From the sequence record SRR20825006_1852: a stretch of DNA of 59,852 bases; one strand, written 5' to 3'. Made by a program: the position numbers and the translations under genes. Position 1 is the first letter of the stretch; every line of letters begins with the position of its first letter. The notes beneath the pieces are model-generated. The model worked only from the letters and a program-made list of their open reading frames with translations, made no database searches and was not told the origin of the DNA. Positions 2,792 to 34,895 of this stretch are shown piece by piece.

Positions 2792-3175
2792 GAGTGTGGA
2801 GCAAACGAAAATTCGGAAAGCGGGCGGATGCCCAGACGGTGGGGCAATGGAGGAACGCGTCATTTTGCGAAATTCAGTCCGTCGGCGATAGACAGTCGCA
2901 TCGATTCCGGCCGGCGGAACGCTAATTCGCTGGTGAAGACCAATGGTCACGAAAGTCGATTGGAAGGCAATATGTCTTAGTTTTGGTCGCGGGTTGATTG
3001 TGGTGAGGTCATGCGTGATTGGTGAGGCAGAGCGTGTTGAAGGGAAGATCGTGACCATCTGTGAGGGTTGAAAGGAAGAAAAATCTGCCTGGCGGCTGTG
3101 AGTGAGCAGGTGACGCTGTATGGTATGTAGTCTAGCCGTGAACCCATTTGCATGATGCAACACCCGAGGATGTCC

Positions 3176-15136: not shown

Positions 15137-15163
15137 GGTGAAAAGACTTCAGTTTGGATGCGC

Positions 15164-15700
15164 TCAGGCGGTTTCATTGCCGAGTTTGGATTCGACGCAC
15201 TCGAAGAGCGTTCGTCGCATGACCTTCAGTGCTTTGTAAATCGCGTGCACAGAACGATTCCAATGTTCCGCGATGATCGCCGCCGACTGCTTCTTTCCGT
15301 AGAACAGATGGATCAATTCTCGTTGGCGAATGGCCAGCTTTTTGACGCACTCATTCATTGCCTCTTGTCGGTCGCTCATCTCTCCGCCCATCTCAAGGGC
15401 GGTGGCTGTGATTTCATGCAGCAACGCGTCGCTGAAAACCAACCGGTCGCGATCGCGAGTTCGCCAGTGTTTGAGGATTTGGTTTCGTGTGACGCCCAGT
15501 GCCCAAGCAACAAATTCGCCGTCCCTTTGAAAGGTAGAAAAGCTTCGCCAAAGTTCCAGGCAGGTTTCTTGATACACATCATCGACCGCATGAGGCTGGA
15601 CGACGATCGACCGGATGTAAGACAGAATCCGAAACTGGTCGCGCGTAAAGAGCCGCAAGAACGTCTCGTAATCGTCGGAGGTTGTTGTGGGTTCGCTCAT
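15164..15700 (-). CDS. ECF-type RNA polymerase sigma-70 factor (planctomycete/verrucomicrobial type)
   Basis: Region 2 (VDDVYQETCLELW, FVAWALGVTRN) and region 4 (CVKKLAIRQRELIHLFY...AIYKALKVMRRTLFECV); start placed at ATG 15700. Confidence 0.9.
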   Translation of the reverse strand: MSEPTTTSDDYETFLRLFTRDQFRILSYIRSIVVQPHAVDDVYQETCLELWRSFSTFQRDGEFVAWALGVTRNQILKHWRTRDRDRLVFSDALLHEITATALEMGGEMSDRQEAMNECVKKLAIRQRELIHLFYGKKQSAAIIAEHWNRSVHAIYKALKVMRRTLFECVESKLGNETA

Positions 15701-15831
15701 TCTGGTTTGGAATGCTTCGATTGCCTTACAGAGATTGCGAATGACGCTACGAAAGCCGACTCGCGTATTGGGAAGTTGCAAAGCGGATTCTAATGGGCTG
15801 CTATGATTCAGGTGGCGCGCTGCGAAACGAT

Positions 15832-15872
15832 TTAGTACCGCTCATCAAATTGTTTTTGAGTTTCGGTACTAA
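15832..15872. promoter_or_regulatory. Inverted repeat in the divergent ECF sigma / DUF1553 promoter region
   Basis: TTAGTACCG (15832-15840) and CGGTACTAA (15864-15872) form a perfect 9-bp inverted repeat, with an inner CTCA/TGAG pair. Confidence 0.45.
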
Positions 15873-15914
15873 TTTCAGTGTCACCGGGACACCTGTTCGA
15901 TAGCAGAGGGACGT

Positions 15915-18900: not shown

Positions 18901-18923
18901 GTGAATTCGTATTTGTGGACTAA
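15915..18923 (+). CDS. Planctomycete cytochrome c domain / DUF1549 / DUF1553 protein
   Basis: CLSCH and CARCH heme-binding-type motifs; LIRRLTFDLIGLPPT, YGERWARHWLDV, NAWPYRDYV, VNRIWQYHFGEGIV..PNDFG and QALSLMN motifs; internal discoidin-like insert. Confidence 0.92.
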   Translation: MRRFDLQCVRFGSVDSMIKEWVAALTASLACVSACAGDEALNAESHFRDRVATIFSQRCLSCHGSEAPEGDFSLHDASSFFAGGHVESGDADSSHLMDLITPKDGQAEMPQDADPLSPADLNVIRQWIDEGAIWPADVVLQEASVNDFGWWSYQPMVQPEVPIVSDPWATSPIDRFILRKLNEEGLKPNPPTDRRELIRRLTFDLIGLPPTPEEVADFVSDQDPLAYEKLVDRLLDSKHYGERWARHWLDVVKYADSNGYDKDKLRPNAWPYRDYVIRSLNQDKPYARFVREQIAGDVLYPGDPDGIAALGFIAAGPWDFIGHVEVSESKQDGKVARNLDRDDMVSGALNTFCSVTVQCARCHNHKFDPITQEQYYGLQAVFSALDRADRSFDIQPETAEQREILNARLGQLITQRNELEQRIQSAGGAELTDLMEQIESLRSKSEAVSYPEYGYHSELALTPDSEKWVEVQLDAEVSASRIILRTCNDNYNNIGAGFGFPLRFKIESADDAGVWTTIADKTGADFPNPQHDAVEFALSGQRVRRVRVTATRLAERKADYIFALAELQIMVGDDHVGVGAKVIAKDSIEAPVRWQRQNLTDNKWPEENEAETLQSLAEAEQRRKEILCAVTTPEISRQLKDISTEETVVRQKLDGLPPQQVVYAAATDFTPQGNFKPTGGIPREVFVLHRGEVSLPGEKAVPGVIPLANSDRWQFDSELDESQRRVQLAEWLTDRQHPLVWRSIVNRIWQYHFGEGIVATPNDFGRMGAEPTHPKLLDWLAVEFRDGGQSWKRLHRLIVTSNTYKQSSATHQKHSAIDGGNRFLWRANRRRLSAEEIRDSVLAVSGVLDHRMGGPGYYLFELEKTAHSPHFQYHKFDPAKKESHRRSVYRFIARSQPNPFLTTLDCADSSQSTPRRNETLTSLQALSLMNNKFSLAMAKEFAKRLISERPDLPAQVELAFELLVQRKPSDAEASELMAYAQDYGLENMCRILFNLSEFVFVD

Positions 18924-18928
18924 ACCCG

Positions 18929-20371
18929 ATGCCAAGTCGAAGAGAGTTTGTCCAACAGGCGAGCACCAACTTTGGGGCCCTCGCGATGGCGGTCCTGTTG
19001 CAAAACGAATCGGAGGCGGCTGGTGGTGGCGCGGTGAAAGTGCTGCACCATCCGCCCAAGGCGAAACGTGTGGTGCAACTGTTCATGGCGGGAGCAGCCA
19101 GCCACATTGATTTGTGGGATCACAAACCATTGCTCGAGAAGCTGCACGGGCAGCAATCTGATTTCGGCGAACCGGTTGAGACTTTCCAAGACGGTCTTGG
19201 GCCATGGATGAAATCGCCATTCCGTTTCTCGCCCTATGGTGAATCGAGCAAGATGCTCAGTGAGGTGGTGGCCCCGCTGGGTGACTGTGTTGACGACATT
19301 GCATTCGTTCACAACATGGTCGGAAAGACTGGCGTGCATTCTCAGGCCACTTATCTACAAGCGACCGGATTCCAGCGGCCAGGGTTCCCCGGAATGGGGT
19401 CATGGGTCAGCTATGGTCTTGGCGCGATCAACGAGAACCTACCCACATTTGTCGTGCTTCCCGATCACCGAGGTTTCGCCAGCAATGGACCGAAGAATTG
19501 GGGAGCAGCTTTTTTGCCCGCATCGGCGCAAGGGACCACGATTTTTCCACAGCGTGCAAACCCGATCGATGATCTCACCGCGCGAGCTGACTTCATTTCG
19601 GCACGAGGTGATCGAGAAGGATTGGCGATGTTAAATCGAATGAATGATCGCTACCTGCAAGAACGCCCGGGTGATTCACGGCTGGAAGCTCGCATTCGAT
19701 CGTATGAGTTGGCGGCCGCGATGCAGTTGCATGCACCCGAAGCATTGGACATTTCAGGCGAGACCGCCGAGACGATGCAGATGTACGGGCTGGATCGGAT
19801 GGGCGCAACCTATCCGGACAAAATCAATCCCGCCGAAGAGGCTGAGTACTTTGGAAGAAAGTGTTTGATCGCGCGTCGTTTGCTTGAGCGTGGCGTCCGG
19901 TTCGTTCAGATCTGGTCTGGAAACGACAACGGCTTTCCCAGACGCAACTGGGATTCGCACGAAGACATTCAGCGTGACCACGGTCCACTGGCCCACGGCA
20001 TGGCGGTTGGCACCGCCGCATTGATCAAAGACTTAAAGCGAACCGGATTGCTGGACGACACGATCGTATTGTGGACAACTGAATTCGGCCGCATGCCGAG
20101 CACGCAAGGTCAGAAAGGACGCGATCACAATCCTTACGTGTTCACGAATTGGATGTGCGGCGGCGGAATTCGCGGCGGTGTCACATCAGGCGAATCTGAC
20201 CCTTGGGGTTACAAGCCGCTTGACCGAGCCCATACGACTCAGGTTTACGACATTCATGCGACCATCTTGCATCAGTTGGGAATTGATCACACCCAACTGA
20301 CGGTTCGACACGACGGTGTTGACCGTCGATTGACTGATGTGCATGGTCACGTTCTCACCGACCTCATTTAG
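18929..20371 (+). CDS. DUF1501 domain protein (sulfatase-like fold) with twin-arginine signal
   Basis: SRREFV N-terminus; AKRVVQLFMAG, GSWVSYGLG, ARRLLERGVRFVQ, WDSH, EFGRMP, GRDHNP and DIHATILHQLG motifs; starts 5 bp after the DUF1553 gene. Confidence 0.92.
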   Translation: MPSRREFVQQASTNFGALAMAVLLQNESEAAGGGAVKVLHHPPKAKRVVQLFMAGAASHIDLWDHKPLLEKLHGQQSDFGEPVETFQDGLGPWMKSPFRFSPYGESSKMLSEVVAPLGDCVDDIAFVHNMVGKTGVHSQATYLQATGFQRPGFPGMGSWVSYGLGAINENLPTFVVLPDHRGFASNGPKNWGAAFLPASAQGTTIFPQRANPIDDLTARADFISARGDREGLAMLNRMNDRYLQERPGDSRLEARIRSYELAAAMQLHAPEALDISGETAETMQMYGLDRMGATYPDKINPAEEAEYFGRKCLIARRLLERGVRFVQIWSGNDNGFPRRNWDSHEDIQRDHGPLAHGMAVGTAALIKDLKRTGLLDDTIVLWTTEFGRMPSTQGQKGRDHNPYVFTNWMCGGGIRGGVTSGESDPWGYKPLDRAHTTQVYDIHATILHQLGIDHTQLTVRHDGVDRRLTDVHGHVLTDLI

Positions 20372-20390: not shown

Positions 20391-21509
20391 TCACTGTTTT
20401 TGGTCGTGAGTGCAGTCGGGATCTCGATCGACCGGCGTTCCGACTTGATCAACCGGATGAGTGAATAGGTATCGCCAGACCGCCTCGTGTTTGTATTCGC
20501 CTGTTTGAGGATCTTTGGCGGCGGAGCGACCTGGTTGAACACTGCTGTGGGCCCGCTTGGCGTCTCCGTTGACATCGAAGTCGGTGATCAAGCGACGCGT
20601 GTGGCCGTAGGGTGTCGACTGTTCGTCTACATTGACGATTGGGCCAAACGCGTTGAGTCCGAGCATTTCCCAGCTGCGGCAATAGTGGTCATCGACCCAG
20701 CCACCATCCAACACATGCGAGAACGCGAAATAGCGATTGGGCGGCGTCGCGGATGGAAGGGCTTGCCAATTTTGATACTGATCACGAGGTCCACACAAAG
20801 CGACCACGCGAGCGACGCGTTGGTGTTTCGCGAATCGCGAGGCGGTCGTCGAACCGTGGGAGCTGCCAGCGACAATGACTTTGTCCCAGTTCAGGTCCGT
20901 TCGGTCTTCGTTGAGGAATTGCTCCCAGTTTCCCGGTGAGTTTCGCTCGGCCAGCCAGCGAACGAATTGGAAAGCTCGTTCGGACATCCCATCAGGTTTG
21001 GACAAGTCAACTTCGTCGGTGTAGTCTTCGCCGGTGGCCGCTTCCAGCCGCATGTTTCCGCGACAGGTCGGCGGAACTGGATTTTCTTGGCAGCAGATGC
21101 TGAACCACTTGTTTGCGTAGTGGACTCGAATCGCATGCAGGCCATAGTCGCCCAACTTTTCGAATAATTGAGAGTTGTGACCCATCAACCAAATCACCAA
21201 TTGGCCGCGAGAATTGACGTTGGGGTTGAACATCGCCTGCTGCTGATCGGCAGGTTTTCCCTTCGCGTCTTCGATCAGGTAGTTGATTTCTGGGTATGCC
21301 TTCACACGCGGATCGATCTCGGATGCCCGTGCGGTAATCTGAAAACGATCTTGTTTGGCGGCGTTTTCGGCTGGCCCACGGGTTTGGGCTGTGACGATGG
21401 AAGGGAAGAGAAGGGCCCATCCGGCCAGAGCGGCGGAGACGGCCGACAGGGCGTGGGTTTTCAGGCGAGATTCTCGCAATGAAGGGAACGAGGGTGTGAA
21501 ACTCGGCAT
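20391..21509 (-). CDS. Secreted alpha/beta-hydrolase-like protein (BPSS1187-like)
   Basis: Hydrophobic signal-like N-terminus, nucleophile-elbow motif VAGSSHG, candidate Asp (FSHVLDG) and His (AHSSV) residues. Confidence 0.6.
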   Translation of the reverse strand: MPSFTPSFPSLRESRLKTHALSAVSAALAGWALLFPSIVTAQTRGPAENAAKQDRFQITARASEIDPRVKAYPEINYLIEDAKGKPADQQQAMFNPNVNSRGQLVIWLMGHNSQLFEKLGDYGLHAIRVHYANKWFSICCQENPVPPTCRGNMRLEAATGEDYTDEVDLSKPDGMSERAFQFVRWLAERNSPGNWEQFLNEDRTDLNWDKVIVAGSSHGSTTASRFAKHQRVARVVALCGPRDQYQNWQALPSATPPNRYFAFSHVLDGGWVDDHYCRSWEMLGLNAFGPIVNVDEQSTPYGHTRRLITDFDVNGDAKRAHSSVQPGRSAAKDPQTGEYKHEAVWRYLFTHPVDQVGTPVDRDPDCTHDQKQ

Positions 21510-21817: not shown

Positions 21818-22957
21818 TTGACCTACTTTGGTTTCGTGCTCAAAGGCCTGTGGCGGCGACCGCTGCGAACGGGGCTGACGCTGATGGCATTGGCCACGGC
21901 GATCGGTTCGGTGATGGCTTTGTCGGGAGTGGCCGAAGGGTTCACGGAGTCTTTTCGAGGCGTGTACGAATCGCACCGTGTCGACGTCGTTGTCTCACGA
22001 CAGGGATCGGCGGATCGATTGAGCAGTTCACTGGAAGAGTCTTATGTCGCGGATGTTGCCCAGGTAGAAGGCGTCTCCGATGCGGCAGGGGTCTTGCTAG
22101 AAACTTTGTCGGCGGAAGACCAGCAGGTTTATGGGATTCCGGCGATGGGCATGCGGACGGATTCGTGGTTGTTCACCGATTATGAAATGCGTGCTGCCAA
22201 TGCAGGGATGGCTGAAGGCGTCCCGACGATCGGGCAGGTTTACTTGGGTGAGAATTTGGCAGGCCGGTTGGATTGCGAGCCCGGCGCGGTCTTGAATTTG
22301 TTCGACGAACCATTCTTGGTCGCGGGTGTTTTTCAAAGCGGAAGCGTTTGGGAAAACGGTTCCATGATTGTGCCGTTGAACCAACTTCAGGAGTTGGCCG
22401 GAAGGGACGGGCAAATCACATACATCAACGTGGTGTTGGATAATTCAATTGAAGCAACGCAGGTCGATTCTGTCGTGAAGCGGATCACTGCGGTGGACGC
22501 AAAGTTGTTGCCACTAGCAACGGATGAATTTGTGCGGTCCGACACGCGAATGCAACTGGCCGGCGCGATGGCTTGGATGACATCGACGATCGCGTTGTTG
22601 GTTGGTGCAATCGGAACGCTCAACACGATGATGACCAGCGTTTTGGAGCGGACCGGTGAAATTGGAATTCTGCGAGCGATCGGCTGGCCGGCCAAGCGAA
22701 TCGCCGGCGTGATTTTGTGTGAATCGGTGATGCTCGCTTTGTTGGCATCTGTCTTCGGCGGGATTGGTGCCAGTTTGTTGCTCAATGTATTAGCAAACAG
22801 TGAGGCAACCGGTGGATTGCTGCAACCGACCATCGCGACCAGCGTGTGGGCTCGAGGAATGGTGGTTGGTTTAGGGATAGGGATTTTGGGGGCATCGTTG
22901 CCCATTTGGCGTGCGTCGCAAATGCGACCGACCGATGCTCTTCGCCACCAGGGATGA
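21818..22957 (+). CDS. ABC transporter permease, MacB/FtsX family
   Basis: LWRRPLRTGLT N-terminal TM, large periplasmic domain and NTMMTSVLERTGEIGILRAIGW signature; ends in PTDALR. Confidence 0.9.
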   Translation: MTYFGFVLKGLWRRPLRTGLTLMALATAIGSVMALSGVAEGFTESFRGVYESHRVDVVVSRQGSADRLSSSLEESYVADVAQVEGVSDAAGVLLETLSAEDQQVYGIPAMGMRTDSWLFTDYEMRAANAGMAEGVPTIGQVYLGENLAGRLDCEPGAVLNLFDEPFLVAGVFQSGSVWENGSMIVPLNQLQELAGRDGQITYINVVLDNSIEATQVDSVVKRITAVDAKLLPLATDEFVRSDTRMQLAGAMAWMTSTIALLVGAIGTLNTMMTSVLERTGEIGILRAIGWPAKRIAGVILCESVMLALLASVFGGIGASLLLNVLANSEATGGLLQPTIATSVWARGMVVGLGIGILGASLPIWRASQMRPTDALRHQG

Positions 22958-22960
22958 CCG

Positions 22961-25900
22961 GTGAGCGATCGACCTAGGACACAAACGAACTTTTCGAAGA
23001 TAGGGATTGGCGTGAGGAACGAACCACTTGCCGTTGTGGGCATCGGTTGTCGCTTCCCCGGGGATGCGAATGATCCATCCGCGTTTTGGGACCTGCTGGC
23101 ATCGGGAACAGATGCCATCTCCAAAACCCCCGAGGACCGATGGAACCTGAAGAAGTTCTATCGGCCCGATGAGCCAATGCTTGGCAAAACCCAGAGCCAA
23201 TGGGGTGGCTACGTTCGCGGTATCGACCAATTCGACCCGACGTTGTTTGGTATCTCGCCACGCGAAGCCGCGGCAATGGATCCTCAGCAACGGATGTTGT
23301 TGGAAGTCGCCTATCGGGCAATGGAGGACGGCGGTGCGCCACTGGGTTCGCTGGCCGGTCGACCGGTCGCCGTGTTCACTGGGATCAGCAGCATCGATTA
23401 CGCGGTTGCCAGCTTGAGTTTTGAAGATCGCGGTGAGTTGGGACCCTACACGAACACCGGATCATCCAGCAGCATTGCCGCCAATCGCATCTCGTATTGC
23501 TTTGATTTGCGTGGTCCCAGCGTCGCCGTTGACACAGCATGCTCTTCGTCTTTGGTTGCGTTGCACATGGCCTGCCAAGCGATCTGGAACGGCGAAGCCG
23601 AGACGGCACTTGCCGGCGGTGTCAATGCGCTGATCATGCCCGATTTTTACGTAGCTTTCAGCCAGCTTGGCGTGTTGTCACCCGACGGACGTTGCAAGAC
23701 ATTTGATTCGCGCGCCAATGGCTATGCCCGTAGCGAAGGCGCGGGAATGGTGATGCTGAAGCCGCTTCGTGAAGCGCAGAAAAATGGCGACCGAATCTAT
23801 TGCACGATTCGAGCAACAGCACTGAACCAAGACGGCAGAACACCTGGGTTGACCGTCCCCAGTGGTGAGCAACAAGAACGATTGGTCAAACGCACGTGCG
23901 AGTTGGCCGAGGTCGATCCGGCAGACGTCCAGTACTTTGAAGCTCATGGAACCGGGACCGCTGTTGGTGATCCGATCGAAGCGGGGGCGCTCGGGCGAGT
24001 CATTGCATCGAGCAGTCAGAAACGCGAAGCACCTTGCCGCATCGGCTCGGTGAAAACCAACATTGGTCACCTGGAGGCCGGTGCGGGAATCGCAAGTTTG
24101 ATCAAGGTCGCGCTGTCGATGCACCACCAGGCCATTCCGCCTCACCTGCATCTGCAGACGCCGAATCCCGAAATCGATCTGAGCGGGTGGAACCTTCACA
24201 TACCAACCCACTTGGAATCCTGGGACGCAGATGGTCCGGCACGAATCGCTGGCATCAATGGTTTCGGTTACGGTGGCGCCAATGGACATGTGATTGTCGA
24301 AGAAGCACCGCGGCGTTCAAAATCGAAAGCTTCCGTTGTGCTTGATTCAGGCCGTGCGGCGGAAAGTTCGAATCGGAACACCAGTGCGTTAGTCTTGCCC
24401 GTTTCGGCAACGGACCGGAAGTCTCTCGCGAATGTCGCAAGTCACTGGAACGAATGGCTGTCGGAAAATACCGATGTCGGTAAAGATTCTCTCGGTATGG
24501 TCGCTGTTGCTGGAACCGCGGCTCACTACCGAACGCACCACGATGTCCGCACATTGGTTGTCGGCGAAGACTTCGAGTCGCTACGAGATGAGCTGACTCA
24601 TTTGTCAGAGTCGTTACGGTCGAATGACAATGCGAACGAGGCCGCCGTTGTTCCATCACGATTGACCAGTGAAGAACGCAGTCGGGGCATCGTGTTTTTG
24701 TGTTGCGGACAAGGACCACAATGGTGGGCGATGGGACGTGGGCTCTATCGAGACAACATGGTGTTTCGGAAGACCATTGAACGGATTGATGCCGAGTTTC
24801 GAAAACATGCGTCGGAATGGTCGTTGATCGAAGAGCTTCATCGCGATTCGGAAACGACTCGGATGAATCGCACATCAATTGCACAGCCTGCGTTGTTTGC
24901 GATCCAAGTTGCACAAGCGGAGATGTGGACGTCGGTTGGTATTCGGCCGAGTTTGATCATTGGGCACAGTGTCGGCGAAATCGCTGCGGCTCATCTCTCA
25001 GGTGGATTGGATTTTGCGGATGCCTGTCGAGTGGCAATCCATCGCGGCCGAACAATGGATCTGGCAACCAGTCGCGGCGCCATGATCGCCGTGGGACTGA
25101 CCGAGCAAGAAGCTACGAAGCGAATTGCGGGTCTCGCAAAAATCGATCCGAAAATGCCCGAGTCCGTTGCAATCGCGGCGGTCAATGGCCCGGCATCGAT
25201 CACTTTGTCGGGCGACAGCGAAGCGATTGAACGATTGGCGACTTCGATCGAAGAAGACGGCATTTTTTGTCGACGGTTGGCAGTCGAGTACGCGTTCCAC
25301 AGTCCGCAAATGGATCCCGTTCGCGAAGAATTGTTGCGGTCACTTGATGGGATTCAGACTCGGCCTCTGCACACGCCGATGATCTCGACCGTGACGGGGC
25401 GTGCCATCGACGAATCAGATTCCTTGGCCGGTGATTATTGGTGGACGAACGTACGAAAGGGTGTTCGATTTGCCGATGCGGTCATGACGGCGGCAAGGTC
25501 CGGCTATGGCGTCGGAGTTGAACTCGGGCCGCACCCGGTGCTGGCTTTCGCGACGACGGAGTGTTACGGCCACACGTCACAGAACATCCAGTTGATCGCA
25601 ACGGCACGCCGCCCAAAGCCCGATCCAACTGCTGGCGATTTGGAATTGTTTGACCATGACGAGAGTCAGTGGCTGGACGGAGTCAGTGACTTGTTCTCGT
25701 TTGGGTTTGACCTGGATTGGTCGGGATTGATTTCGCGGCCAAGTGAGAGGGCGGAACTTCCGCTCTATCCAATGCAGCGTCAAAGTTTGTGGACGGAATC
25801 GGAGCAATCACGGCGTAGCCGACTGATGATATCGGTTCATCCGCTACTGGGTGACCCAGACCCTTCGGCCGATCCAGTATTCCGCGGCCGAATTGACGGG

Positions 25901-28900
25901 GACAATCAAGCTTATCTGTTCGATCACCGAGTCCGCAGTGCGGCGATGTTCCCTGCCGCTGCAGGGCTCGAAATGTCACTGGCAGGAACGCTTTCGGTGC
26001 TTTCACGAGCGAGCGAATTGGCTGGTGATCCTGCACCGAATCGAATTCGCTTGCAGCGTTTGCAATTGCTCAATGCACTGATTCTGGATGAGTCGCAACC
26101 ACATCGATTGGAAACCTCGTTGGCGGGTGATCGGCGTTCGATTGAGATTCGATACCGTGAGATTCCCGGCGAGGCTTGGACGTCACTTCTTGCTGCAACT
26201 CATGGGACTCCGTCGCCGATTGATGCCGATACCAAGCGTGCGGAATTAATTGCCGGTCGAGAGCGATGTTTGCAATCGTTCAATGACAAAGATTGCTATG
26301 ACTATTGCCAGTCGATTGGGTTGAACTACGGACCTGCGTTCCAAGGGATCCGGCAAGGCGTCCGGCGTGACGGCGAGTCGATTGCGACGGTGCGGCTAGA
26401 TGAATCTGTTCGCACGCCGGCGTTTGATGCGGAGGCATCGCTTTACCTCGTTCATCCCGCGGTGCTGGATAGTTGCTTCCACGCGATGGTCGTTTGCGAT
26501 CCTCTGTTTGGACGTTCGCCCGGCGGTTTGTATCTGCCGCACGAAATGGAAGACGTCCAAATCGATTTGGAGCAAATTCAGTCGGCTGGTTTGGATCGCG
26601 ATCTGACCGTCCATGCGAAAATTCGACTGAAGACAGAGCATCGCCTATTGGCGGACTTGGATTTGTTCTTGGACGACGGAACGCATGTCGGGTCAATCGT
26701 TGGATTTGAAAGCCGCCGCGTGGGCGCCGAGAGCGAACAGTCGACCAAGGACTTGATGTATCGCTATCGCTGGCAAGTTGATGATTCGGAGGAAATCCCC
26801 GTCACGGAGAATGAAAAGTTCGTCGTGTTCTCTCCAGCGGATTTGGCGGATGAGCTCGTTCGTGGTTGGGGTAAATCTCGCGAGGAATTCATCTGGGTGC
26901 ATCCCATCCAAGACCCGTCGCAGCAACCGACACAATTTGTCGGTGACAAATCGGTCGAGCAAGAATGTTATTGGGTTGATGCCGATGATGCGCAATCGTT
27001 TTCGCGATTGTGGGATGAGCTTGGAGTGTCTGCATCAACCGACAATTGGCACTTGGTTTATCTGTGGGCCATCGATGCGGTGGATCCGCTGTCGTTGGAG
27101 GCGATGTCTTCAAAGCAAGCCAGTGACGCTTTGCGAGACAGCACGCTCGTAACCACACGGGCTCCATTGAATCTGGTCCAAAGCTGGGAGGCGATCGCTG
27201 ATCGGCCGCAGACACGATTGACCATGGTGACGCTCGGGGCTCAGTCAGGCGATGAGCTAGACCAGCCTGTTTCCGCGATCCAAATGCCTTTGGTTGGGAT
27301 CGGCCGAGTCATCGTGAGCGAAATCGGATCGCTGCGAACACGTTTGGTCGATTGTGACCCCAACGCGAATTTCCCTTTGCAGGGTTTGGCCGCTGAATGG
27401 TTGCGGGACGATGCGGAAGACGAAGTCATGTTGCGGGAAGGCGTGCGTTACGTGCATCGTTTTGTGCCCGACATGCACCGAGAACTTCAGTCGTCGCTTT
27501 TGGGATCGGATGAACGTCCCGCATGCCGTCTGACCAAAGGTGCCGCTTCGGGAGTCGACGAACTGAAGCATCAGGCGTTCGGCCGGAGTGAACCGGGGAC
27601 CGGTGAAGTCGAAATCCAAGTTGCTGGTGCCGGGTTGAACTTCAGCGATGTGATGAAGGTGTTGGACTTGTATCCCGGATTGCCACCGGGACCGGTGGCA
27701 CTGGGGGCTGAAGTCAGCGGTGTTGTCACAGCGGTCGGTGAAGACGTCGATGGATTTGTGATCGGCGACGATGTCATCGCAGTCGCACCCGGCGGTTTTG
27801 CGACACATGTCATGGTCAACGCCGCATTGGTTGCGAAGGCTCCTGCTTCAATCGATTTGGTCGATGCATCAGCTATCCCAGTCGCGTGGCTGACCGCGGA
27901 TCACGCCATGAACACGTGTGCTCGGTTGCGAGATGATGAATCGATTTTGATTCATGCGGCCAGTGGTGGTGTCGGGTTGGCGGCGATTGAAGTGGCTCAA
28001 GAATTGGGCGTGGAAGTCTTCGCAACCGCGGGAAGCGATCTCAAACGCGATCATGTTCGATCGATGGGCGTCGAGCACGTTCACGATTCGCGATCGTTGA
28101 ACTTCGTTTCCGAAATTGCGAATTTGACTGAGGCTCGAGGGGAACCAGGGATCGATGCGATTCTTAATTCGCTGCCTGGCGAAGCGATTCCGGCGGGGAT
28201 GAGTTTGCTTCGTGTTGGTGGTCGATTCTTGGAAATCGGTAAGCGAGATATTTACGCCGATCAGTCTTTGGGGATGTACCCGCTACGTAACAATCTCGCA
28301 TTCTTTGCGATCGATTTGGATCAGCTGTTTCAGCAGCAAGCCATCCGAATGGGCAAGCGATTGCGAGAGGTGGTCCAGAAGTTCAATTCGAAAATTTATC
28401 GTGGGCATGAACCCAAGCGGTTTGAGGCGACAGAGGCGGCTTCCGCTTTTCGGTTCATGCAGCAAGCCAAACATATCGGAAAGGTGATTGTCGACTACAC
28501 CTCGCCACCCGCCAAAGTGCGAGCTCGCGATGATGGCGAATTTCAGTTCCGAGCCGATGGGACTTACTGGTTGGCTGGCGGATTGGGTGGATTCGGATTG
28601 CGGGTTGCGGATTGGATGTCAGAATCCGGTGCCGGGACATTGGTGCTGAGCGGCCGGAGCAAAACGGTTCGCGATCAAGCCGTTCCAGTCATCGAGCGTA
28701 TGCGTTCTCGAGGCACGCAGGTTGTCGTGCTGCCTTGCGATATCACTGATCCCGATGACATTCAGCGGACTCTCGACCAAATTGATGAAGAGTTGCCGCC
28801 ATTGCGAGGCGTATTACACACGGCAATGGTGCTGGAAGACAAGATGATTGTCGACCTCGATCGCGAGACGCTCGATCGAGTGTTGTGGCCGAAGGTTTTG

Positions 28901-31900
28901 GGCGGATGGAATCTCCACCAAGCGACTCGCAATCGAGTCTTGGACCAATTCATTTTGTTCTCGTCGCTATCGAGTGTGTTTGGTCATGCTGGACAAGCCA
29001 ACTACTCCGCCGCAAATGCATTGTTGGATGGGTTGGCTCATCACCGACGTGTATCCGGTCTTCCCGCGACGGTGATCAATTGGGGGCACCTTGGCGAAGT
29101 CGGATACCTGGCGGAACGCGAAGAGTTGAGTGAACGTCTTCGACGGCAGGGTGTGTTGGATTTCTCGTCGACCGAAGCGACGGAATGTTTGGCTCGTGCA
29201 TTGCACCGAGGATCCACACAGTGCAGTGTGCTGCGAATGGATTGGTCGCGTTGGCGAGGATTGGGACTGACTAAAGATGTCTCGCCGAGGTTTGCGCACT
29301 TGATTCGCGGAGGCAACGATGCCGAACAAACAATCAACGGTGAATCACTGCGCCAGATCGCAGCGTCAGATCGTGAGCGATGTCTGCACGAAGTTGTTTC
29401 GGTGAAGCTGGCTTCATTGCTGGGTGGCAACGTCGCTGAGTTGGATGCCGACCGGCCGATGTTGGAGATGGGATTGGATTCCTTGATGGCCGTCGAGCTT
29501 CGCAACTGGATCGAAGGTCAGTTGCAGTTGAAACTCCAAATCGGTGCGTTGATGCGAGGATCCAGCCTCCGATCGTTGGTCGCAACGCTCAGTGATTCAT
29601 TGGCAATGGAAACCGGCGATGCATCAGGTTCGTCGACGCGCGTGGGAACCGGAGTCCAAGAAGACATCGCTGATGATCCAGCGATGCAGGATCGCCAACG
29701 CTATCCGATGTCGGATCAGCAAACCGGGCTGTGGTACGCGTTTCGTCGCAACCGAAACGGCACGGCGTTCAACGTTTTCCTGCCGACACGATTGCGTGCC
29801 CCTTTGGACGTCGACGCTTTGCGGAAATCGATCGAGGGTGTGGTGCAGCGGCATGCCGCATTGCGAACCACGTTCACGGATTCGTCAGGCGAATTGCAGC
29901 AGATTGTTCACGACGAATTGAAACCTGAGTTTGTCGTCGAGGATTGGTCGACGTCGAATGGTCGCATGCATACGGAAGATGAACTGCTTCAATCCGTAGT
30001 CGCGGAAACTCAACGGCCATTTGATTTGCAGAATGGACCCATGATGCGAATCCGATTGTTTCGTTTGGCCGACGATGACTGGGTGGTGGTCGCGACAACG
30101 CATCATATCGTCGTCGACTTCTGGTCGCTGATCTTGATTCTTGGCGAAATCAAACAGTTCTACCCACAGTATTTGGTGGGGGATTCGCCGGCCATTGTTC
30201 CGCCGGAAAAGGACTACTTTGAGTTGGTGTTGCGGCAGCGTCATTTGCTGAATTTGCCGCGAGGTCAGTCGTTGAAGGAATACTGGACGACCACGCTTGC
30301 CGACGTGCCCAAAGTGTTGGAGATTCCCACAGATCGTATTCGCCCAACGACATTCACCCAATCGGCGAAAGTTGTTGGGATCGAATGCGCCGAAGAGGTG
30401 GGGGTAGCGATCAACCGGGTCGCCAGACAGGCTCAGGTGACATCGTCTTCAGTGGTGATGGCAGCACTTCAGGTGATGTTGAAGCGAGCGAGCGGCCAAG
30501 ACAAGTTTGTTATCGGCAGTCCGTTTGCGGGGCGAACCTATTCGGATCTAGAAGACACGGTTGGGTTCTTCGTGAACATGTTGCCATTGGTCGCGGATGT
30601 TTCCGGAAACCCAACGTTTGTTGATTTGGTTCGTCGTGCCGGCGATCGTCTGGTCGATTCGATGCAACATGAGGAGTATCCGTTTGCACAAATCGTTCGA
30701 GATGTGGATCCGCCTCGCGACACGGGACGCAGTCCGCTGATTCAGGTTTCTTGCACCTTCGAAAAAGCTCACGTTCGGGAGGAGGAGGGACGCGCCGGCT
30801 ACTTGTTCCCGTCCGCGACGGAGGTCAAGGAAATTGGAGGGTTGAAGCAGGAAAGCTTTCCGGTACCGCACCAAACTTGTCACTACGATTTGGAATTCAT
30901 CTTCGAGATGACAGGCGACCATCTCGGCGGGATGATTGTTTTTTGCCAGGATCTGTACGAAGCCGACACGATGCGGGCGATGGCAGATCAATTCGTTGCA
31001 TTGCTTGGGAAATTGGTTGCAGAACCCGATGCGCCGATCGATACGATTCAGACAATCGAAGTTGCCTCGCGTCCAAGTGGCAATTCGAATGCGTCGCGAA
31101 ATGGTGCGGCAAAGAACGAGCATCAGACATTGAACGCATTGATCGCTGATGCCGCCAATCGGACCGATCAGTCGATGGAATCGGAGTCTCATGCGAGATC
31201 GATAGCGGGTAGCAATGGACGTCGATCGTTCAATCGATTGTTCCGTTCTCCGAAATTGAAACCAGCTAGTCCTTCGCTTTCCTACTCCGCCGAATCGATC
31301 GCCCCAGGATCAATTGCGACGCGAGAGTTGATCGCACGTCGTTTGCGATCGCATCATGTGGAACTTGGCGATTTTGTTCCTGTGCTCGCCAAGCCAGGCA
31401 AGCGAGCGGTTGATTTGATTTTGTCGTTGCAGCAAATCGGTGCGGTTCCGGTGCCACTGGATGCGACTCGTCCGTCGGTGTTGCTCGACTTAGTGCTCAA
31501 GCAAACAAACGCCAAGACAATTGTGGTGGATGATCCCGGTGACATAGAAATTTCAGGTGTGCGCAAGCTGACTTGGGATCAGCTCACTGGAACACAAAAT
31601 GGTGCGTCCAATGGAAACGGCAAGTCCTCGGCCAACGGGAATGCGAAATCGACTGTCGTTTCAAGCAGCGACGCCGCCTATGTAATTTACACGTCGGGGA
31701 CGACTGGCGTGCCGAAGGGAGTGATCGTTTCGCATGGTGCGATTGCGAATACTCTGCGATGGCGCGGTCGGATCACGCCGCTGAACTCCGCTGACAAGAT
31801 GCTGATGCCGTTGTCGCATCAGTTCGATGCAGGGTTGGGGATGACATTGTTTGCCTACTCGCAAGGTGCCGAAGTGATATGGCCCAGTGCGGAGAACGTG

Positions 31901-33958
31901 GCAGATATCGATTCCATCGTGGAGCAGATCATTCGCGATGAGGTGACGGTTTTGGTTGGCGTTCCCTCTTGGATCGATCTGATCGCATCGCATCGCAAAT
32001 TTGCTCACTGCCATTCGCTGCGTCATGTGTGGATTGGTGGTGAGTCGATGCCTGAGAGTTTGCCACGTCTGATTCGTCGAAGCAGTGAAGCACAGATTTG
32101 GAATTGTTACGGTCCAACCGAAGCCGCGGTGGAAGCAACCGCGTATCGCATCAACGATGTGCATTCCGATCGTCGCATCCCGGTTGGATTGCCTGCTGAT
32201 CACACCGATGTGGTTGTGGTGGATTCCAATCATTTGGAAGTTCCACCGACTTTTGCCGGTGAAATTGCACTGGTTGGTGCCGGGTTGGCCGATGGCTACC
32301 TGGGCGATGAATCTTTAACCGAACAAAGGTTCGTGAACCTTCCCGATGGACGACGAGCTTATTTGACTGGAGATCAAGGACGCCGACGGGTGGACGGATT
32401 GGTCGAAGTGCTGGGACGCATGGATCGGCAAATCAAGGTTGGTGGTTATCGCATCGAGCCGACCGAAATCGAAACTGTTCTGCGGGACCATCCTGCGGTC
32501 GCACAGGTCGCCGTGGTGCCTCGTCATGTCGGCGATTCCGCCGCGACCAAATTGATCGCGTTCATCCAAATGGATTCGGTCGATGCCATTGCGAGCTCTA
32601 GTACCAACGGGACGGTTGAGCATCAGGCCAGTTGGAACGATGTGGTGCTGTTGTTGCAGCATCATGTGGCTGAACACTTGCCGCCTTACAAACGGCCAGC
32701 ACACATGCAACAAGTCGAGTCGTTCGAGACGACGGCGAGCGGCAAAGTCGATTTGAACGCGTTGCCCGAATTCGCGCCGGATGCATCTGATCTGTCGGTT
32801 CATCAGCCTCCTCGAACCGATTTGGAGCAACACCTCGCGGATCGTTGGACGGACGTTTTGGGAGTGCATTCGATTGGGATCAATCAGAGCTTCTTTGAGT
32901 TCGGTGGCAGTTCGCTTCAGGCTGCGATGCTGACGAACCGTTTGAGCGAAGACTTAGGTGTCGACGTTCCTTCTTCGTTGCTGTTTGATCTCGCCGATAT
33001 TTCCGCCATGGCGGGGCGATTGGCATCTCTGTATCCAAGCGAATTGTCGCGACGATTTGGGCAGGCATCGGTGGACTTCTATGCGGACGAATCCCACCTG
33101 CGAAACAACGGACTGAACGAATTGCTGGCTCCGCTGAAAGTGACCGGCGACCGGACTCCGTTGTTCATGGTCCACCCACCCGGCGGTATCGTTGTTTGCT
33201 ACCGAGAACTGGCGGCTCATTTGCCAGACGACCAGCCGATGTACGCGATCCGCGCACGAGGATTGCACGGAAAAGAAGAATTGCCATCGACGATGCAGGC
33301 GATGGCAGCAGAATATGTCGAGGCGATTCGCTCGGTTCGACCGGAAGGTCCGTACGTGATTGGCGGATGGTCGGTCGGCGGAGTCATTGCCATGGAAGTT
33401 GCTCAGCAGCTGATCGCCGATAGGAATGAAGTCGAGGGGCTGATTCTGTTGGATTCGTCGATTCCAAGCGGTGCCAGCGATTTGGTTCCCGCCGAGGACC
33501 AAACTAACGTGGGATTGGAATACGGCATCGATTTGTCGTTGGATGAATTGCTGCAACTACCGAGCGAAGAGCAATTGCCTTTCCTTTGGCAACACGCGGA
33601 AAAACTGGGAGTGCTTGACCAAAACACGCCCGCCGACGTGGCTGCTCGGGCGATTGACGATTTGAAGACCCTCTTCCACCACCATCTGAAATTGACCACC
33701 CAGTACAAGATGCAACCCATCGAGACACGGATCGTGCTGTTCCGGCCAACCGACGTACCGTTTGAAACCGAAGGCAGTGCCGATCGAGGGTGGTCACACT
33801 TGGCCGAAGGGGTCGATGTCATCTCGACGCCCGGTCATCACCACAGCATGGTGCAGGATCCTCACGTCAAGCAATTGGCACAGTCAATTTGCGAAACGTT
33901 GGGTGCAAACAGTCTCGCGAGCGAAGCGAATTCCAACGTAAGCCACGCCGGTGGCTGA
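22961..33958 (+). CDS. Hybrid type I PKS-NRPS megasynthase (KS-AT-DH-ER-KR-ACP-C-A-PCP-TE)
   Basis: KS: DTACSSS, HGTGT, NIGHLE. AT: GQGPQW, GHSVG, YAFHS. DH: HRVRSAAMFP, HPAVLDSCFH. ER: LNFSD, HAASGGVG. KR: GGLGGFG, VLEDK, YSAAN. ACP: GLDSL. C: HHIVVD. A: YTSGTTGVPKG, YGPTE, YLTGD, SGKVD. PCP: GGSSL. TE: GWSVG. Confidence 0.95.
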   Translation: MSDRPRTQTNFSKIGIGVRNEPLAVVGIGCRFPGDANDPSAFWDLLASGTDAISKTPEDRWNLKKFYRPDEPMLGKTQSQWGGYVRGIDQFDPTLFGISPREAAAMDPQQRMLLEVAYRAMEDGGAPLGSLAGRPVAVFTGISSIDYAVASLSFEDRGELGPYTNTGSSSSIAANRISYCFDLRGPSVAVDTACSSSLVALHMACQAIWNGEAETALAGGVNALIMPDFYVAFSQLGVLSPDGRCKTFDSRANGYARSEGAGMVMLKPLREAQKNGDRIYCTIRATALNQDGRTPGLTVPSGEQQERLVKRTCELAEVDPADVQYFEAHGTGTAVGDPIEAGALGRVIASSSQKREAPCRIGSVKTNIGHLEAGAGIASLIKVALSMHHQAIPPHLHLQTPNPEIDLSGWNLHIPTHLESWDADGPARIAGINGFGYGGANGHVIVEEAPRRSKSKASVVLDSGRAAESSNRNTSALVLPVSATDRKSLANVASHWNEWLSENTDVGKDSLGMVAVAGTAAHYRTHHDVRTLVVGEDFESLRDELTHLSESLRSNDNANEAAVVPSRLTSEERSRGIVFLCCGQGPQWWAMGRGLYRDNMVFRKTIERIDAEFRKHASEWSLIEELHRDSETTRMNRTSIAQPALFAIQVAQAEMWTSVGIRPSLIIGHSVGEIAAAHLSGGLDFADACRVAIHRGRTMDLATSRGAMIAVGLTEQEATKRIAGLAKIDPKMPESVAIAAVNGPASITLSGDSEAIERLATSIEEDGIFCRRLAVEYAFHSPQMDPVREELLRSLDGIQTRPLHTPMISTVTGRAIDESDSLAGDYWWTNVRKGVRFADAVMTAARSGYGVGVELGPHPVLAFATTECYGHTSQNIQLIATARRPKPDPTAGDLELFDHDESQWLDGVSDLFSFGFDLDWSGLISRPSERAELPLYPMQRQSLWTESEQSRRSRLMISVHPLLGDPDPSADPVFRGRIDGDNQAYLFDHRVRSAAMFPAAAGLEMSLAGTLSVLSRASELAGDPAPNRIRLQRLQLLNALILDESQPHRLETSLAGDRRSIEIRYREIPGEAWTSLLAATHGTPSPIDADTKRAELIAGRERCLQSFNDKDCYDYCQSIGLNYGPAFQGIRQGVRRDGESIATVRLDESVRTPAFDAEASLYLVHPAVLDSCFHAMVVCDPLFGRSPGGLYLPHEMEDVQIDLEQIQSAGLDRDLTVHAKIRLKTEHRLLADLDLFLDDGTHVGSIVGFESRRVGAESEQSTKDLMYRYRWQVDDSEEIPVTENEKFVVFSPADLADELVRGWGKSREEFIWVHPIQDPSQQPTQFVGDKSVEQECYWVDADDAQSFSRLWDELGVSASTDNWHLVYLWAIDAVDPLSLEAMSSKQASDALRDSTLVTTRAPLNLVQSWEAIADRPQTRLTMVTLGAQSGDELDQPVSAIQMPLVGIGRVIVSEIGSLRTRLVDCDPNANFPLQGLAAEWLRDDAEDEVMLREGVRYVHRFVPDMHRELQSSLLGSDERPACRLTKGAASGVDELKHQAFGRSEPGTGEVEIQVAGAGLNFSDVMKVLDLYPGLPPGPVALGAEVSGVVTAVGEDVDGFVIGDDVIAVAPGGFATHVMVNAALVAKAPASIDLVDASAIPVAWLTADHAMNTCARLRDDESILIHAASGGVGLAAIEVAQELGVEVFATAGSDLKRDHVRSMGVEHVHDSRSLNFVSEIANLTEARGEPGIDAILNSLPGEAIPAGMSLLRVGGRFLEIGKRDIYADQSLGMYPLRNNLAFFAIDLDQLFQQQAIRMGKRLREVVQKFNSKIYRGHEPKRFEATEAASAFRFMQQAKHIGKVIVDYTSPPAKVRARDDGEFQFRADGTYWLAGGLGGFGLRVADWMSESGAGTLVLSGRSKTVRDQAVPVIERMRSRGTQVVVLPCDITDPDDIQRTLDQIDEELPPLRGVLHTAMVLEDKMIVDLDRETLDRVLWPKVLGGWNLHQATRNRVLDQFILFSSLSSVFGHAGQANYSAANALLDGLAHHRRVSGLPATVINWGHLGEVGYLAEREELSERLRRQGVLDFSSTEATECLARALHRGSTQCSVLRMDWSRWRGLGLTKDVSPRFAHLIRGGNDAEQTINGESLRQIAASDRERCLHEVVSVKLASLLGGNVAELDADRPMLEMGLDSLMAVELRNWIEGQLQLKLQIGALMRGSSLRSLVATLSDSLAMETGDASGSSTRVGTGVQEDIADDPAMQDRQRYPMSDQQTGLWYAFRRNRNGTAFNVFLPTRLRAPLDVDALRKSIEGVVQRHAALRTTFTDSSGELQQIVHDELKPEFVVEDWSTSNGRMHTEDELLQSVVAETQRPFDLQNGPMMRIRLFRLADDDWVVVATTHHIVVDFWSLILILGEIKQFYPQYLVGDSPAIVPPEKDYFELVLRQRHLLNLPRGQSLKEYWTTTLADVPKVLEIPTDRIRPTTFTQSAKVVGIECAEEVGVAINRVARQAQVTSSSVVMAALQVMLKRASGQDKFVIGSPFAGRTYSDLEDTVGFFVNMLPLVADVSGNPTFVDLVRRAGDRLVDSMQHEEYPFAQIVRDVDPPRDTGRSPLIQVSCTFEKAHVREEEGRAGYLFPSATEVKEIGGLKQESFPVPHQTCHYDLEFIFEMTGDHLGGMIVFCQDLYEADTMRAMADQFVALLGKLVAEPDAPIDTIQTIEVASRPSGNSNASRNGAAKNEHQTLNALIADAANRTDQSMESESHARSIAGSNGRRSFNRLFRSPKLKPASPSLSYSAESIAPGSIATRELIARRLRSHHVELGDFVPVLAKPGKRAVDLILSLQQIGAVPVPLDATRPSVLLDLVLKQTNAKTIVVDDPGDIEISGVRKLTWDQLTGTQNGASNGNGKSSANGNAKSTVVSSSDAAYVIYTSGTTGVPKGVIVSHGAIANTLRWRGRITPLNSADKMLMPLSHQFDAGLGMTLFAYSQGAEVIWPSAENVADIDSIVEQIIRDEVTVLVGVPSWIDLIASHRKFAHCHSLRHVWIGGESMPESLPRLIRRSSEAQIWNCYGPTEAAVEATAYRINDVHSDRRIPVGLPADHTDVVVVDSNHLEVPPTFAGEIALVGAGLADGYLGDESLTEQRFVNLPDGRRAYLTGDQGRRRVDGLVEVLGRMDRQIKVGGYRIEPTEIETVLRDHPAVAQVAVVPRHVGDSAATKLIAFIQMDSVDAIASSSTNGTVEHQASWNDVVLLLQHHVAEHLPPYKRPAHMQQVESFETTASGKVDLNALPEFAPDASDLSVHQPPRTDLEQHLADRWTDVLGVHSIGINQSFFEFGGSSLQAAMLTNRLSEDLGVDVPSSLLFDLADISAMAGRLASLYPSELSRRFGQASVDFYADESHLRNNGLNELLAPLKVTGDRTPLFMVHPPGGIVVCYRELAAHLPDDQPMYAIRARGLHGKEELPSTMQAMAAEYVEAIRSVRPEGPYVIGGWSVGGVIAMEVAQQLIADRNEVEGLILLDSSIPSGASDLVPAEDQTNVGLEYGIDLSLDELLQLPSEEQLPFLWQHAEKLGVLDQNTPADVAARAIDDLKTLFHHHLKLTTQYKMQPIETRIVLFRPTDVPFETEGSADRGWSHLAEGVDVISTPGHHHSMVQDPHVKQLAQSICETLGANSLASEANSNVSHAGG

Positions 33959-34895
33959 ACCAACGAAGCATTCGCATGGCGGTGAGTTGAAGATAGGATT
34001 GGTGTGCGCCTTGTTGGCTCACACGATGTGGGGGCTGTTTCCGATCTACTGGCGACAAATTGGCAATGCCGATTCGACGGAATTGGTTTGCCACCGGATC
34101 GTATGGTCGTTCGTGACGCTAGGGTTAGTGCTGCCCGTGATGCTGTGGCGGGGACGCTGGGGTGGTTTTCGAGTCGTCTACCAGCAGCTACGCAGTCGAA
34201 AAGTATGGGCGGTTTACTCCATCGCCGCCGTGATGATCGCGATCAATTGGTTGGCGTTTATTTGGGCGGTCAACAACAACCGCGTTTTGGAAGCATCGTT
34301 GGGATACTACATCAACCCACTGCTCAACGTGGTTTTGGGAGTTGTAGTCTTGGGCGAACGCCTGCGGTGGCCGCAATGGATGGCGGTTGGATTCGCGGCG
34401 GTTGGTGTGTCTGTGATGGCGATTGGCAATGGAGGTTTGCCGTGGGTATCGATGGCGATGGCAACTTCGTTTGCGATCTACGGGCTGGTCAAAAAGAAAG
34501 CCTCGCTGCCAGTGCTGCTTGGGCTGATGTTGGAAGTCACCTTGCTGGTGGTTCCGGCAGCGATCTATTTGGGAATGCGTTTGGCGGACGGTGTGTCCAC
34601 CATGCAGACCGGCACCACGATCGAATTTGGAATGCTGCTTGGTGCAGGGCTGATCACCATCGCACCGCTGGCGTTTTTCGCGGCGGCGGTACAGCGAGTG
34701 GATTTGTCGCTGATGGGGATCCTGCAATACATCGGTCCAACGTTGCAGTTTTTGGTTGGCTATGTCTTGTTTGGGGAGACGCTCGATTTGCCGCGCAAGA
34801 TTGGTTTCGTATTTGTATGGACCGGGCTGCTGATTTTTTTGCTGGCGTCCCAGTTCAAGCGAAGAAGGCCAGCGCTGGTTGCAGAGGCCAGCTAG
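33951..34895 (+). CDS. rarD: EamA-family transporter RarD
   Basis: WGLFPIYW, HRIVWS, NWLAFIWAV, EASLGYYINPL, GERL and GILQYIGPTLQF motifs; overlaps the PKS-NRPS end by 8 bp. Confidence 0.9.
   Translation: MAEPTKHSHGGELKIGLVCALLAHTMWGLFPIYWRQIGNADSTELVCHRIVWSFVTLGLVLPVMLWRGRWGGFRVVYQQLRSRKVWAVYSIAAVMIAINWLAFIWAVNNNRVLEASLGYYINPLLNVVLGVVVLGERLRWPQWMAVGFAAVGVSVMAIGNGGLPWVSMAMATSFAIYGLVKKKASLPVLLGLMLEVTLLVVPAAIYLGMRLADGVSTMQTGTTIEFGMLLGAGLITIAPLAFFAAAVQRVDLSLMGILQYIGPTLQFLVGYVLFGETLDLPRKIGFVFVWTGLLIFLLASQFKRRRPALVAEAS

Follow-up and report, generated by a model that had tools for sequence, protein, structure and literature searches.

A Single-Gene Reducing PKS-NRPS from a Probable Rhodopirellula and Its Association with a Putative Envelope-Trafficking Module

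The Locus and Its Synthase Gene

The stretch of DNA considered here, 59,852 nucleotides of sequence record SRR20825006_1852 and referred to below as the window, carries a single gene in which a reducing polyketide synthase (PKS) module is fused to a non-ribosomal peptide synthetase (NRPS) module, set between the gene for a type VII ATP-binding cassette (ABC) permease and rarD (Table 1). In our assessment, this gene represents a real, selected and uncharacterised synthase family that is a variant of the bacterial monomodular PKS/NRPS and is tied to a putative, apparently undescribed envelope-trafficking module. The named protein matches, at 73-86% identity, are to Rhodopirellula species, making Rhodopirellula the most likely genus of the window. 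Three bases separate the permease gene from the synthase gene, and the latter overlaps rarD by eight, exactly as an earlier sequence-only reading of this DNA had placed all three genes; to judge from this spacing, they may be cotranscribed. A scan for promoters and terminators was uninformative: it gave 3 promoter-like sites, where shuffled sequences gave 6.6, and 13 terminator-like sites, where these gave 16.3. The GC content of the synthase locus equals that of its flanks (0.54-0.57), and in view of this lack of any shift an origin as a horizontal island was rejected. Nor is the fusion an artefact of assembly, since the nearest genome (G001) keeps the same open frame at 98-99% identity.

The 3665-residue protein comprises ketosynthase (KS), acyltransferase (AT), dehydratase (DH), enoylreductase (ER), ketoreductase (KR), acyl carrier (ACP), condensation (C), adenylation (A), peptidyl carrier (PCP) and thioesterase (TE) domains. 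The sequence-only reading had described these ten with intact-looking catalytic motifs, ER included, and Pfam, alignments and the ratio of nonsynonymous to synonymous substitution (dN/dS) all bear this out. Pfam detects no methyltransferase domain in the protein, and the same scan finds one in a sister type (G015, L278). Likewise, the Pfam scan of 39 window open reading frames (ORFs) returned no loading, tailoring or phosphopantetheinyl transferase (PPTase) gene, so that what that reading had said of missing accessory genes, methyltransferase included, holds.

Table 1. Coordinates of the three-gene unit and of the synthase domains in the window, with residue numbers in the 3665-aa protein
Feature	Window position	Strand	Residue span (Pfam)	Residues placed by alignment	Basis and remarks
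MacB/LolC-type (type VII ABC) permease, first gene of the unit	21818..22957	+			379 aa; Pfam MacB_PCD and FtsX
PKS-NRPS gene	22961..33958	+			3665 aa; KS-AT-DH-ER-KR-ACP-C-A-PCP-TE (Pfam, alignments)
KS, the N-terminal-most domain, no loading domain	23021..24310	+	21-398	Cys194/His329/His370	Pfam, alignment, tree; own planctomycete clade
AT	24692..25612	+	578-884	Ser670	Pfam, alignment
DH	25838..26740	+	960-1260	His989/Asp1170	Pfam; both residues conserved
ER	27551..28495	+	~1547-1844	glycine-rich loop 1665-1673	Nucleotide-binding loop; dN/dS
KR and ACP	28559..29617	+	KR 1867-2044; ACP 2143-2219	KR Lys1978/Ser2002/Tyr2015; ACP Ser2174	Pfam, alignment
C	29693..31060	+	2245-2700	His2382/Asp2386	Pfam; catalytic His/Asp
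A, unusual family-conserved pocket	31331..32746	+	2791-3262	Asp2956/Lys3262	Alignment
PCP and NRPS-type TE	32834..33889	+	PCP 3292-3354; TE 3400-3643	PCP Ser3318; TE Ser3471/Asp3498/His3627	Pfam PF00975, alignment; full Ser/Asp/His triad
rarD (EamA/DMT) transporter	33951..34895	+			314 aa; TIGR00688 above cut-off

Catalytic Residues, Selection, and Substrate Pockets

The catalytic residues of all ten domains are present and are also conserved in the aligned orthologues, their roles being presumed from the literature on each family. Purifying selection acts on every synthase domain tested, ER among them, with dN/dS against close orthologues of 0.017-0.12 in 22 of 22 domain comparisons and of 0.048-0.050 for ER. 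Among the family members read, the nucleotide-binding loop of ER is intact in 49/49 and the catalytic His/Asp of the C domain is conserved in 34/34.

The AT domain carries Phe779/His780 together with an atypical Tyr777, and these residues are invariant among the aligned family rows. It likely loads malonyl-CoA; by the specificity rules for these positions, it would have no methylmalonyl motif. The pocket of the A domain, with positions assigned via alignment to LgrA and numbered as in PheA, reads D235, A236, G239, V278, W299, G301, C322, V330, E331 and K517, and matches no specificity code that we know of. Across the family, D235, A236, W299 and G301 are kept in 33/33 members, position 331 is Glu or Gln in 32 of 33 A domains (27 Glu, 5 Gln), position 239 varies among Gly, Ala, Pro and Cys, and position 278 never holds an acid.

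Distribution of Fused and Split Synthases

Nine of 19 same-genus genomes carry an orthologue of the NRPS half, taken at 50% identity or more. Of 401 genomes sampled evenly across the order, at least 9 have an orthologue at 43% identity or above, a lower bound because the search scored two candidates per genome; a further two matches, at 33-34%, belong to other synthetases. Among the best 120 of 4808 matches in an ER search, every named family member is planctomycete and the rest are unassigned, and the cultured genera that carry the family are Rhodopirellula, Stieleria, Crateriforma and Novipirellula. In a quick tree of 62 self-chosen KS rows, scored by SH-aLRT only and built without fungal or polycyclic tetramate macrolactam (PoTeM) references, the family forms one clade of 21 rows (SH-aLRT 100) in which fused and split members stand together, and its sister is a planctomycete type carrying a methyltransferase. 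In G015 (L023/L024), this sister type is a 3992-aa KS-AT-DH-MT-ER-KR-ACP-C-A-PCP-TE protein encoded behind an MMPL gene.

A permease-only scan of species genomes gave 428 loci, the best 80 of which were examined. The synthase is fused in 11 of these; in 23 the PKS gene precedes a separate gene for the NRPS, in 9 the available sequence has a PKS but shows no C domain, and in the remaining 37 no whole PKS module is seen, either because there is genuinely none or because the stretch is short or broken. Two of the nine loci without a C domain stop at a contig edge and seven continue into unrelated genes. Because most relatives are thus split or have a PKS without C, the single gene is a lineage-specific fusion and the minority form (11 fused of 43). 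The one-gene synthase of the sequence-only reading is accordingly real in the window and in G001, but it is not the general form. The separate PKS and NRPS genes bear docking-like helical ends, and in G350 the PKS and permease genes lie on one contig and the NRPS gene on another.

Linkage to the Permease and to rarD

The unit that is conserved consists of permease and synthase. Of the 75 loci that leave 600 bases or more behind the permease, 56 have a KS starting no more than 1.5 kb downstream of it; the count includes two loci that are copies on the same contig, and related genomes in it are not independent. By contrast, the linkage of rarD, which the sequence-only reading had placed on a par with that of the permease, does not extend to distant relatives. 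rarD follows the synthase in five of five close genomes, with the whole triplet kept in G001, G007, G010 and G012 and the synthase-rarD pair in G018, and it stands behind TE in none of ten distant loci with at least 1.5 kb of sequence there (G019, G005, G006, G274, G328, G304, G330, G366, G346 and G350). Of four distant synthase genomes searched throughout, G019, G006 and G350 (95-97% complete) yielded no rarD; it is unlinked in G330 and present in G002, which has no synthase. rarD is therefore a local accessory of the close clade at most.

The permease combines a MacB periplasmic core with an FtsX membrane domain (Pfam), scores under the NCBIfam cut-offs for LolC/E, MacB and DevC, and has no ATPase of its own in the operon. 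A cognate ABC ATPase lies within the cluster in G274, G304, G328, G340 and G100; G001 has only an unlinked best match, at 55%. Neither adaptor nor TolC genes are among the recurring neighbours, no genome-wide search for them having been made. In G006, the synthase is intact among flagellar genes, and the permease orthologue is unlinked and split over two frames (L171:7426-8533) by decay or sequencing error. In ten loci without a synthase (L061-L072), a conserved gene for a major facilitator superfamily (MFS) transporter stands upstream of the permease and could provide the inner-membrane step for other cargo.

A Wider Module of Periplasmic Partners

Neighbour clustering reveals that a gene for an SppA/S49-like lipoprotein recurs near the permease. 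Among the 64 loci with 1.2 kb or more of sequence upstream, it is divergent from the permease in 33 and present anywhere around it in 38. The protein matches the structures of B. subtilis SppA (E 1e-33) and Pfam S49, and in 76/76 sequences the nucleophile Ser is replaced by Gly, the general-base Lys by Ile, Val or Met, and the second Ser by Gly. With all three catalytic residues replaced, the lipoprotein is predicted to be catalytically dead. We take the B. subtilis residues to be Ser147, Lys199 and Ser169, respectively, and presume the Lys to be mutated in the PDB chains.

In G274, G304 and G328, the genes run in the order permease, synthase, ABC ATPase, X, SppA-like lipoprotein, Y. Protein Y has a signal-peptide-like start and belongs to no Pfam family. 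Its AlphaFold model (pLDDT 82) matches the ceramide-transfer START domain of CERT (Foldseek E 1.5e-5) and, in a VIA comparison, STARD5 (Z 12.7, root-mean-square deviation 3.4, 179 residues aligned), and by this model Y would be a secreted protein of the START (helix-grip) fold. X is a secreted orphan protein with a model at pLDDT 90, for whose fold no clear match emerged (lowest Foldseek E 0.057, highest VIA Z 4.0, Atlas 0.77 only). In the 401-genome sample, 104 genomes have the permease family, 87 the SppA-like family and 83 both, where 22.6 would be expected if the two were independent; kin are not independent in this count, and the top scores are partly circular, several of these genomes having supplied sequences for the alignments.

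Other synthases adjoin the same parts. In G100, one block holds an ATPase, two permeases, a synthetase that begins with a fatty acyl-AMP ligase (FAAL), FAAL-ACP-C-A-PCP-TE, and genes for X, Y and the SppA-like protein; the layout of this synthetase suggests a product of one fatty acid plus one amino acid. FAAL-primed NRPS/PKS genes adjoin the module in other families too, as does the sister KS type with its methyltransferase at L278 and L294. Across 40 chosen stretches with permease or SppA-like matches (30 genomes), 13 contain a PKS, NRPS or FAAL gene (10 genomes); among 37 metagenome loci of at least 8 kb at the SppA-like gene, 14 have a PKS, NRPS or FAAL gene, 16 have Y, 11 the permease and none rarD. 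Blocks of permease, ATPase and permease with Y and the dead SppA-like gene, and no synthase near, are common across the order (L212-L250, L056, L049, L054), and four to six of these stretches adjoin genes for a cyclopropane-synthase-like methyltransferase, an FAD enzyme and a YceI protein.

In the nearest genome, G001, the SppA-like, Y and X genes are each present in a single copy, and the best ATPase match and a 280-aa PPTase are there as well, all distant from the cluster and from one another. The description of the locus as a self-contained orphan cluster consequently fails, since in G001 the ATPase, the periplasmic partners and the PPTase lie elsewhere. Such scatter fits a remark, in passages of PMC12479983, that planctomycete pathway genes are often unclustered.

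Comparison with Known Systems

The sequence-only reading had named fungal PKS-NRPS hybrids as the nearest layout, and here the evidence points elsewhere. Fungal highly reducing hybrids (PsoA, LovB-like) combine, like the window synthase, a single highly reducing PKS module with a single NRPS module. The window synthase differs from them in having no C-methyltransferase domain between DH and ER, an intact cis-ER and a TE instead of a reductase or Dieckmann cyclase (R/DKC) domain. In the fungal enzymes, the cis-ER is usually inactive and is complemented in trans. The KS scores higher against bacterial than against fungal KSs (CurL 458 bits, PikA 429, Pks13 403, Mas 373, LovB 363 and PsoA 343; one higher total in the same search sums two KS stretches), and because the KS thus looks bacterial the closer precedent is the bacterial IkaA. 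Passages of PMC4979870 and PMC11933527 describe IkaA, of the IkaA/HSAF-type PoTeM systems, as an iterative, monomodular PKS/NRPS with a single bacterial PKS module fused to C-A-PCP-TE, acyl-amino acid joining and release by TE. It differs in its polyene products and its use of ornithine (PMC11933527), in its tetramate and in its need for IkaB and IkaC; the window synthase has an intact ER, another pocket and no linked cyclase, and most of its relatives, unlike the fused IkaA, are split in two genes. By analogy, the window synthase would work most like IkaA, yet ER, pocket and cyclases set it apart from the PoTeM group. The domain list of IkaA has no ER.

Mas and Pks2, which make envelope lipids, share the single KS-AT-DH-ER-KR-ACP module, and Mas is the best whole-protein PDB match. 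The window protein nevertheless reaches 1172.8 bits against a 2400-bit NCBIfam cut-off for Pks2, runs on into an NRPS module and has no linked FAAL. The stieleriacines of Stieleria belong to the N-acyl amino acid class and come from the same family, with pathway genes that are scattered; a knockout reported in passages of PMC12479983 shows that they are made mainly by NasY1, not by a PKS-NRPS, and they were rejected as the product on this ground. Since Stieleria genomes carry the present cluster as well, the PKS-NRPS constitutes a pathway separate from NasY. With respect to transport, the type VII ABC systems for comparison are LolCDE-LolA, YbbAP-TesA and DevBCA, from which the present system differs in its partners: a START-fold protein, a secreted orphan protein and an SppA-like lipoprotein predicted to be catalytically dead.

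A Proposed Pathway and Its Rivals

These observations lead us to a reading to which we give about an even chance of being correct: that the gene encodes an iterative, fully reducing PKS-NRPS making an N-acyl amino-acid lipid, which the module handles in the periplasm. A trans-acting Sfp-type PPTase would prime both carriers, whereupon the KS would prime itself or accept a short primer and cycle with malonyl-CoA and NADPH to build a largely saturated chain. The single module most likely cycles, because no upstream module exists and no acyl-AMP ligase is linked in 80 loci; besides the A domain of the NRPS itself, these permease loci contain no AMP-binding gene. The C domain would then couple the chain through an amide to a single amino acid bound to PCP, and the TE would release the product by hydrolysis, since a fully reduced chain offers no beta-keto group for tetramate closure. 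An N-acyl amino-acid product, as the sequence-only reading had proposed, is supported as likely.

According to passages of PMC5985334, type VII ABC (MacB-type) proteins act in the periplasm and do not move their substrate over the inner membrane, so that the product would first need some other way across. In the close clade, RarD is a candidate for this step, though it would not be required. LolCDE and YbbAP supply a periplasmic partner with the hydrophobic molecules that they extract (PMC12646458), and by analogy the ABC transporter may draw the product out of the outer leaflet and transfer it to Y, the START-fold carrier, with the dead SppA lipoprotein serving as a scaffold or holding cage. 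The broader proposition, of which we are doubtful, is that this planctomycete iterative PKS/NRPS makes an amino-acid lipid served by a new trafficking machine (type VII ABC extractor, START-fold carrier and dead SppA cage) that is common to many lipid and lipopeptide synthases across the order.

Several considerations weigh against the N-acyl amino-acid lipid and its periplasmic handling. The product is predicted as a class, not as a compound of given chain length and amino acid, and iteration is not readable from sequence; among PDB matches to a single KS, the highest-scoring is the KS of CurL, a modular enzyme. The seven loci in which unrelated genes follow the PKS allow a PKS-only product. 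No KS lies downstream of the permease in 19 of the 75 loci, and G002 and G008 retain the permease without an orthologue of the synthase. The START fold predicted for Y is no demonstration that it binds lipid, and its role as a carrier is likewise predicted. The partner genes, moreover, were located in G001 and not in the window's own assembly. Finally, no synthase lies within about 10 kb in 27 of the 40 stretches (other families) or in 23 of the 37 metagenome loci. Because so many module loci are without a synthase, the module has other cargo and linkage is no proof that it handles this product; the same follows from G002, which has all the transport parts and not this synthase.

The competing account that survives best, though we consider it rather improbable, keeps the product class and changes the origin of the chain: the KS would take a long acyl chain, from acyl-ACP of type II fatty acid synthesis (FAS II) or from an unlinked acyl-AMP ligase, and extend it once or a few times before C adds the amino acid. 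Mas extends a ready acyl primer once or a few times in just this fashion, and its standing as best whole-protein PDB match (963 bits), together with the match to the Pks2 model below its cut-off, the FAAL-ACP start of other synthetases beside the module, and an acyltransferase/acyl-ACP synthetase gene at 6686-8986 of the window, speaks for primer extension. That gene, however, is near the cluster only in the window and close genomes (G007, G010), no FAAL or other ligase is linked in the 80 loci, and a single fully reductive two-carbon step would presumably duplicate FAS II.

An unlikely alternative follows the PoTeM precedent, with reduction skipped in the last round and the TE closing a beta-keto amide to yield a secreted 3-acyl tetramate antibiotic rather than a membrane lipid. 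The fused layout and TE release recall IkaA (passages of PMC4979870 and PMC11933527), and adsorber-resin extracts of R. baltica inhibit Gram-positive bacteria, the compounds being unassigned in the passages concerned (PMC4990742). Such an outcome sits poorly with an ER, KR and DH that are intact and selected, with the absence of any oxidoreductase or cyclase gene near the gene in the window or among recurring neighbours, and with a pocket that has Gly239 and one acid only, where IkaA holds ornithine by two acids (passages of PMC11933527). An antibacterial C26H51NO6 peak (PMC4990742) was also considered as the product and rejected, its source being Planctopirus limnophila.

We regard as quite improbable a double acylation, in which C would acylate both amines of a diamino acid with saturated chains, as the IkaA C domain does with both amines of ornithine, to give a two-tailed, phosphorus-free envelope lipid. 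The near-constant acid or amide at position 331 and the invariant Trp299 would suit it, as would the ceramide-transfer START domain as best Foldseek match of Y. The pocket floor (239/278), by contrast, has no acidic residue, the pocket fits no diamino-acid code known to us, and the family is patchy within its genus, unlike a core membrane lipid. Last, that permease, synthase and rarD form a self-sufficient three-gene export operon is very improbable, for although the tight spacing, the triplet of the four close genomes and the mechanistic need for an inner-membrane exporter favour it, rarD is gone behind TE in all ten distant loci, unlinked in G330 and present in synthase-less G002, and the permease has no ATPase in the operon.

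Neighbouring and Related Gene Clusters

The glycosyltransferases upstream, the gene for the acyltransferase/acyl-ACP synthetase and the gene divergent from the permease were seen beside the cluster only in close genomes and were for this reason rejected as parts of the system. The divergent gene (20391-21509, minus strand) encodes a secreted protein of the BPSS1187 family, above the NCBIfam cut-off, and occupies the place that the SppA-like gene has in relatives; it was seen only in close genomes. Beyond it, a LamG / ECF sigma / PSD1-cytochrome / DUF1501 block (13502-20371) is absent from this position in G007 and G010, where glycosyltransferases directly adjoin the BPSS1187-family gene, and represents a lineage-specific gain or loss.

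The ten same-genus genomes without an orthologue gave matches to paired NRPS genes of about 1500-2000 aa. The pair in G008 (L205:11762-17107 and L206:3111-10177), with similar genes in G002, G014 and G017, comprises FAAL-ACP-C-A-PCP, a flavin oxidoreductase and C-A-MT-PCP-TE; these genes are not adjacent to the permease, and the complementary pattern may only reflect clade structure. In G325 (L055:2417-9418), an unrelated KS-ACP-C-A-PCP-TE gene is followed by two ABC transporters and a glycosyltransferase, and its A pocket resembles ornithine codes.

Novelty and Implications

Such a gene has probably been noticed already, because genome mining in 2007 pointed to a bimodular NRPS-PKS in R. baltica whose product was unknown (as cited in PMC4982196). 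In the literature searched, which covered few subscription journals, we found no paper on the product of the synthase or on the module of ABC transporter, START-fold protein and dead SppA, although cluster tables in the supplements to planctomycete genome papers may list the cluster; the view that no characterised product is in print held within that literature. Few planctomycete natural products have been linked to genes, and according to a 2025 review (PMC12078418) the one predicted cluster to have been studied in a targeted way is that of a type III PKS. The present family is compact and conserved across cultured genera. Should its members work iteratively, it would stand as a bacterial, fully reducing counterpart to the PoTeM synthases and would make N-acyl amino-acid lipids by way of a megasynthase. 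The module of ABC transporter, START-fold protein and pseudo-SppA, both markers of which occur in 83 of the 401 genomes, would add a new function to the type VII ABC proteins and serves as a marker for lipid-type clusters across the Pirellulales.

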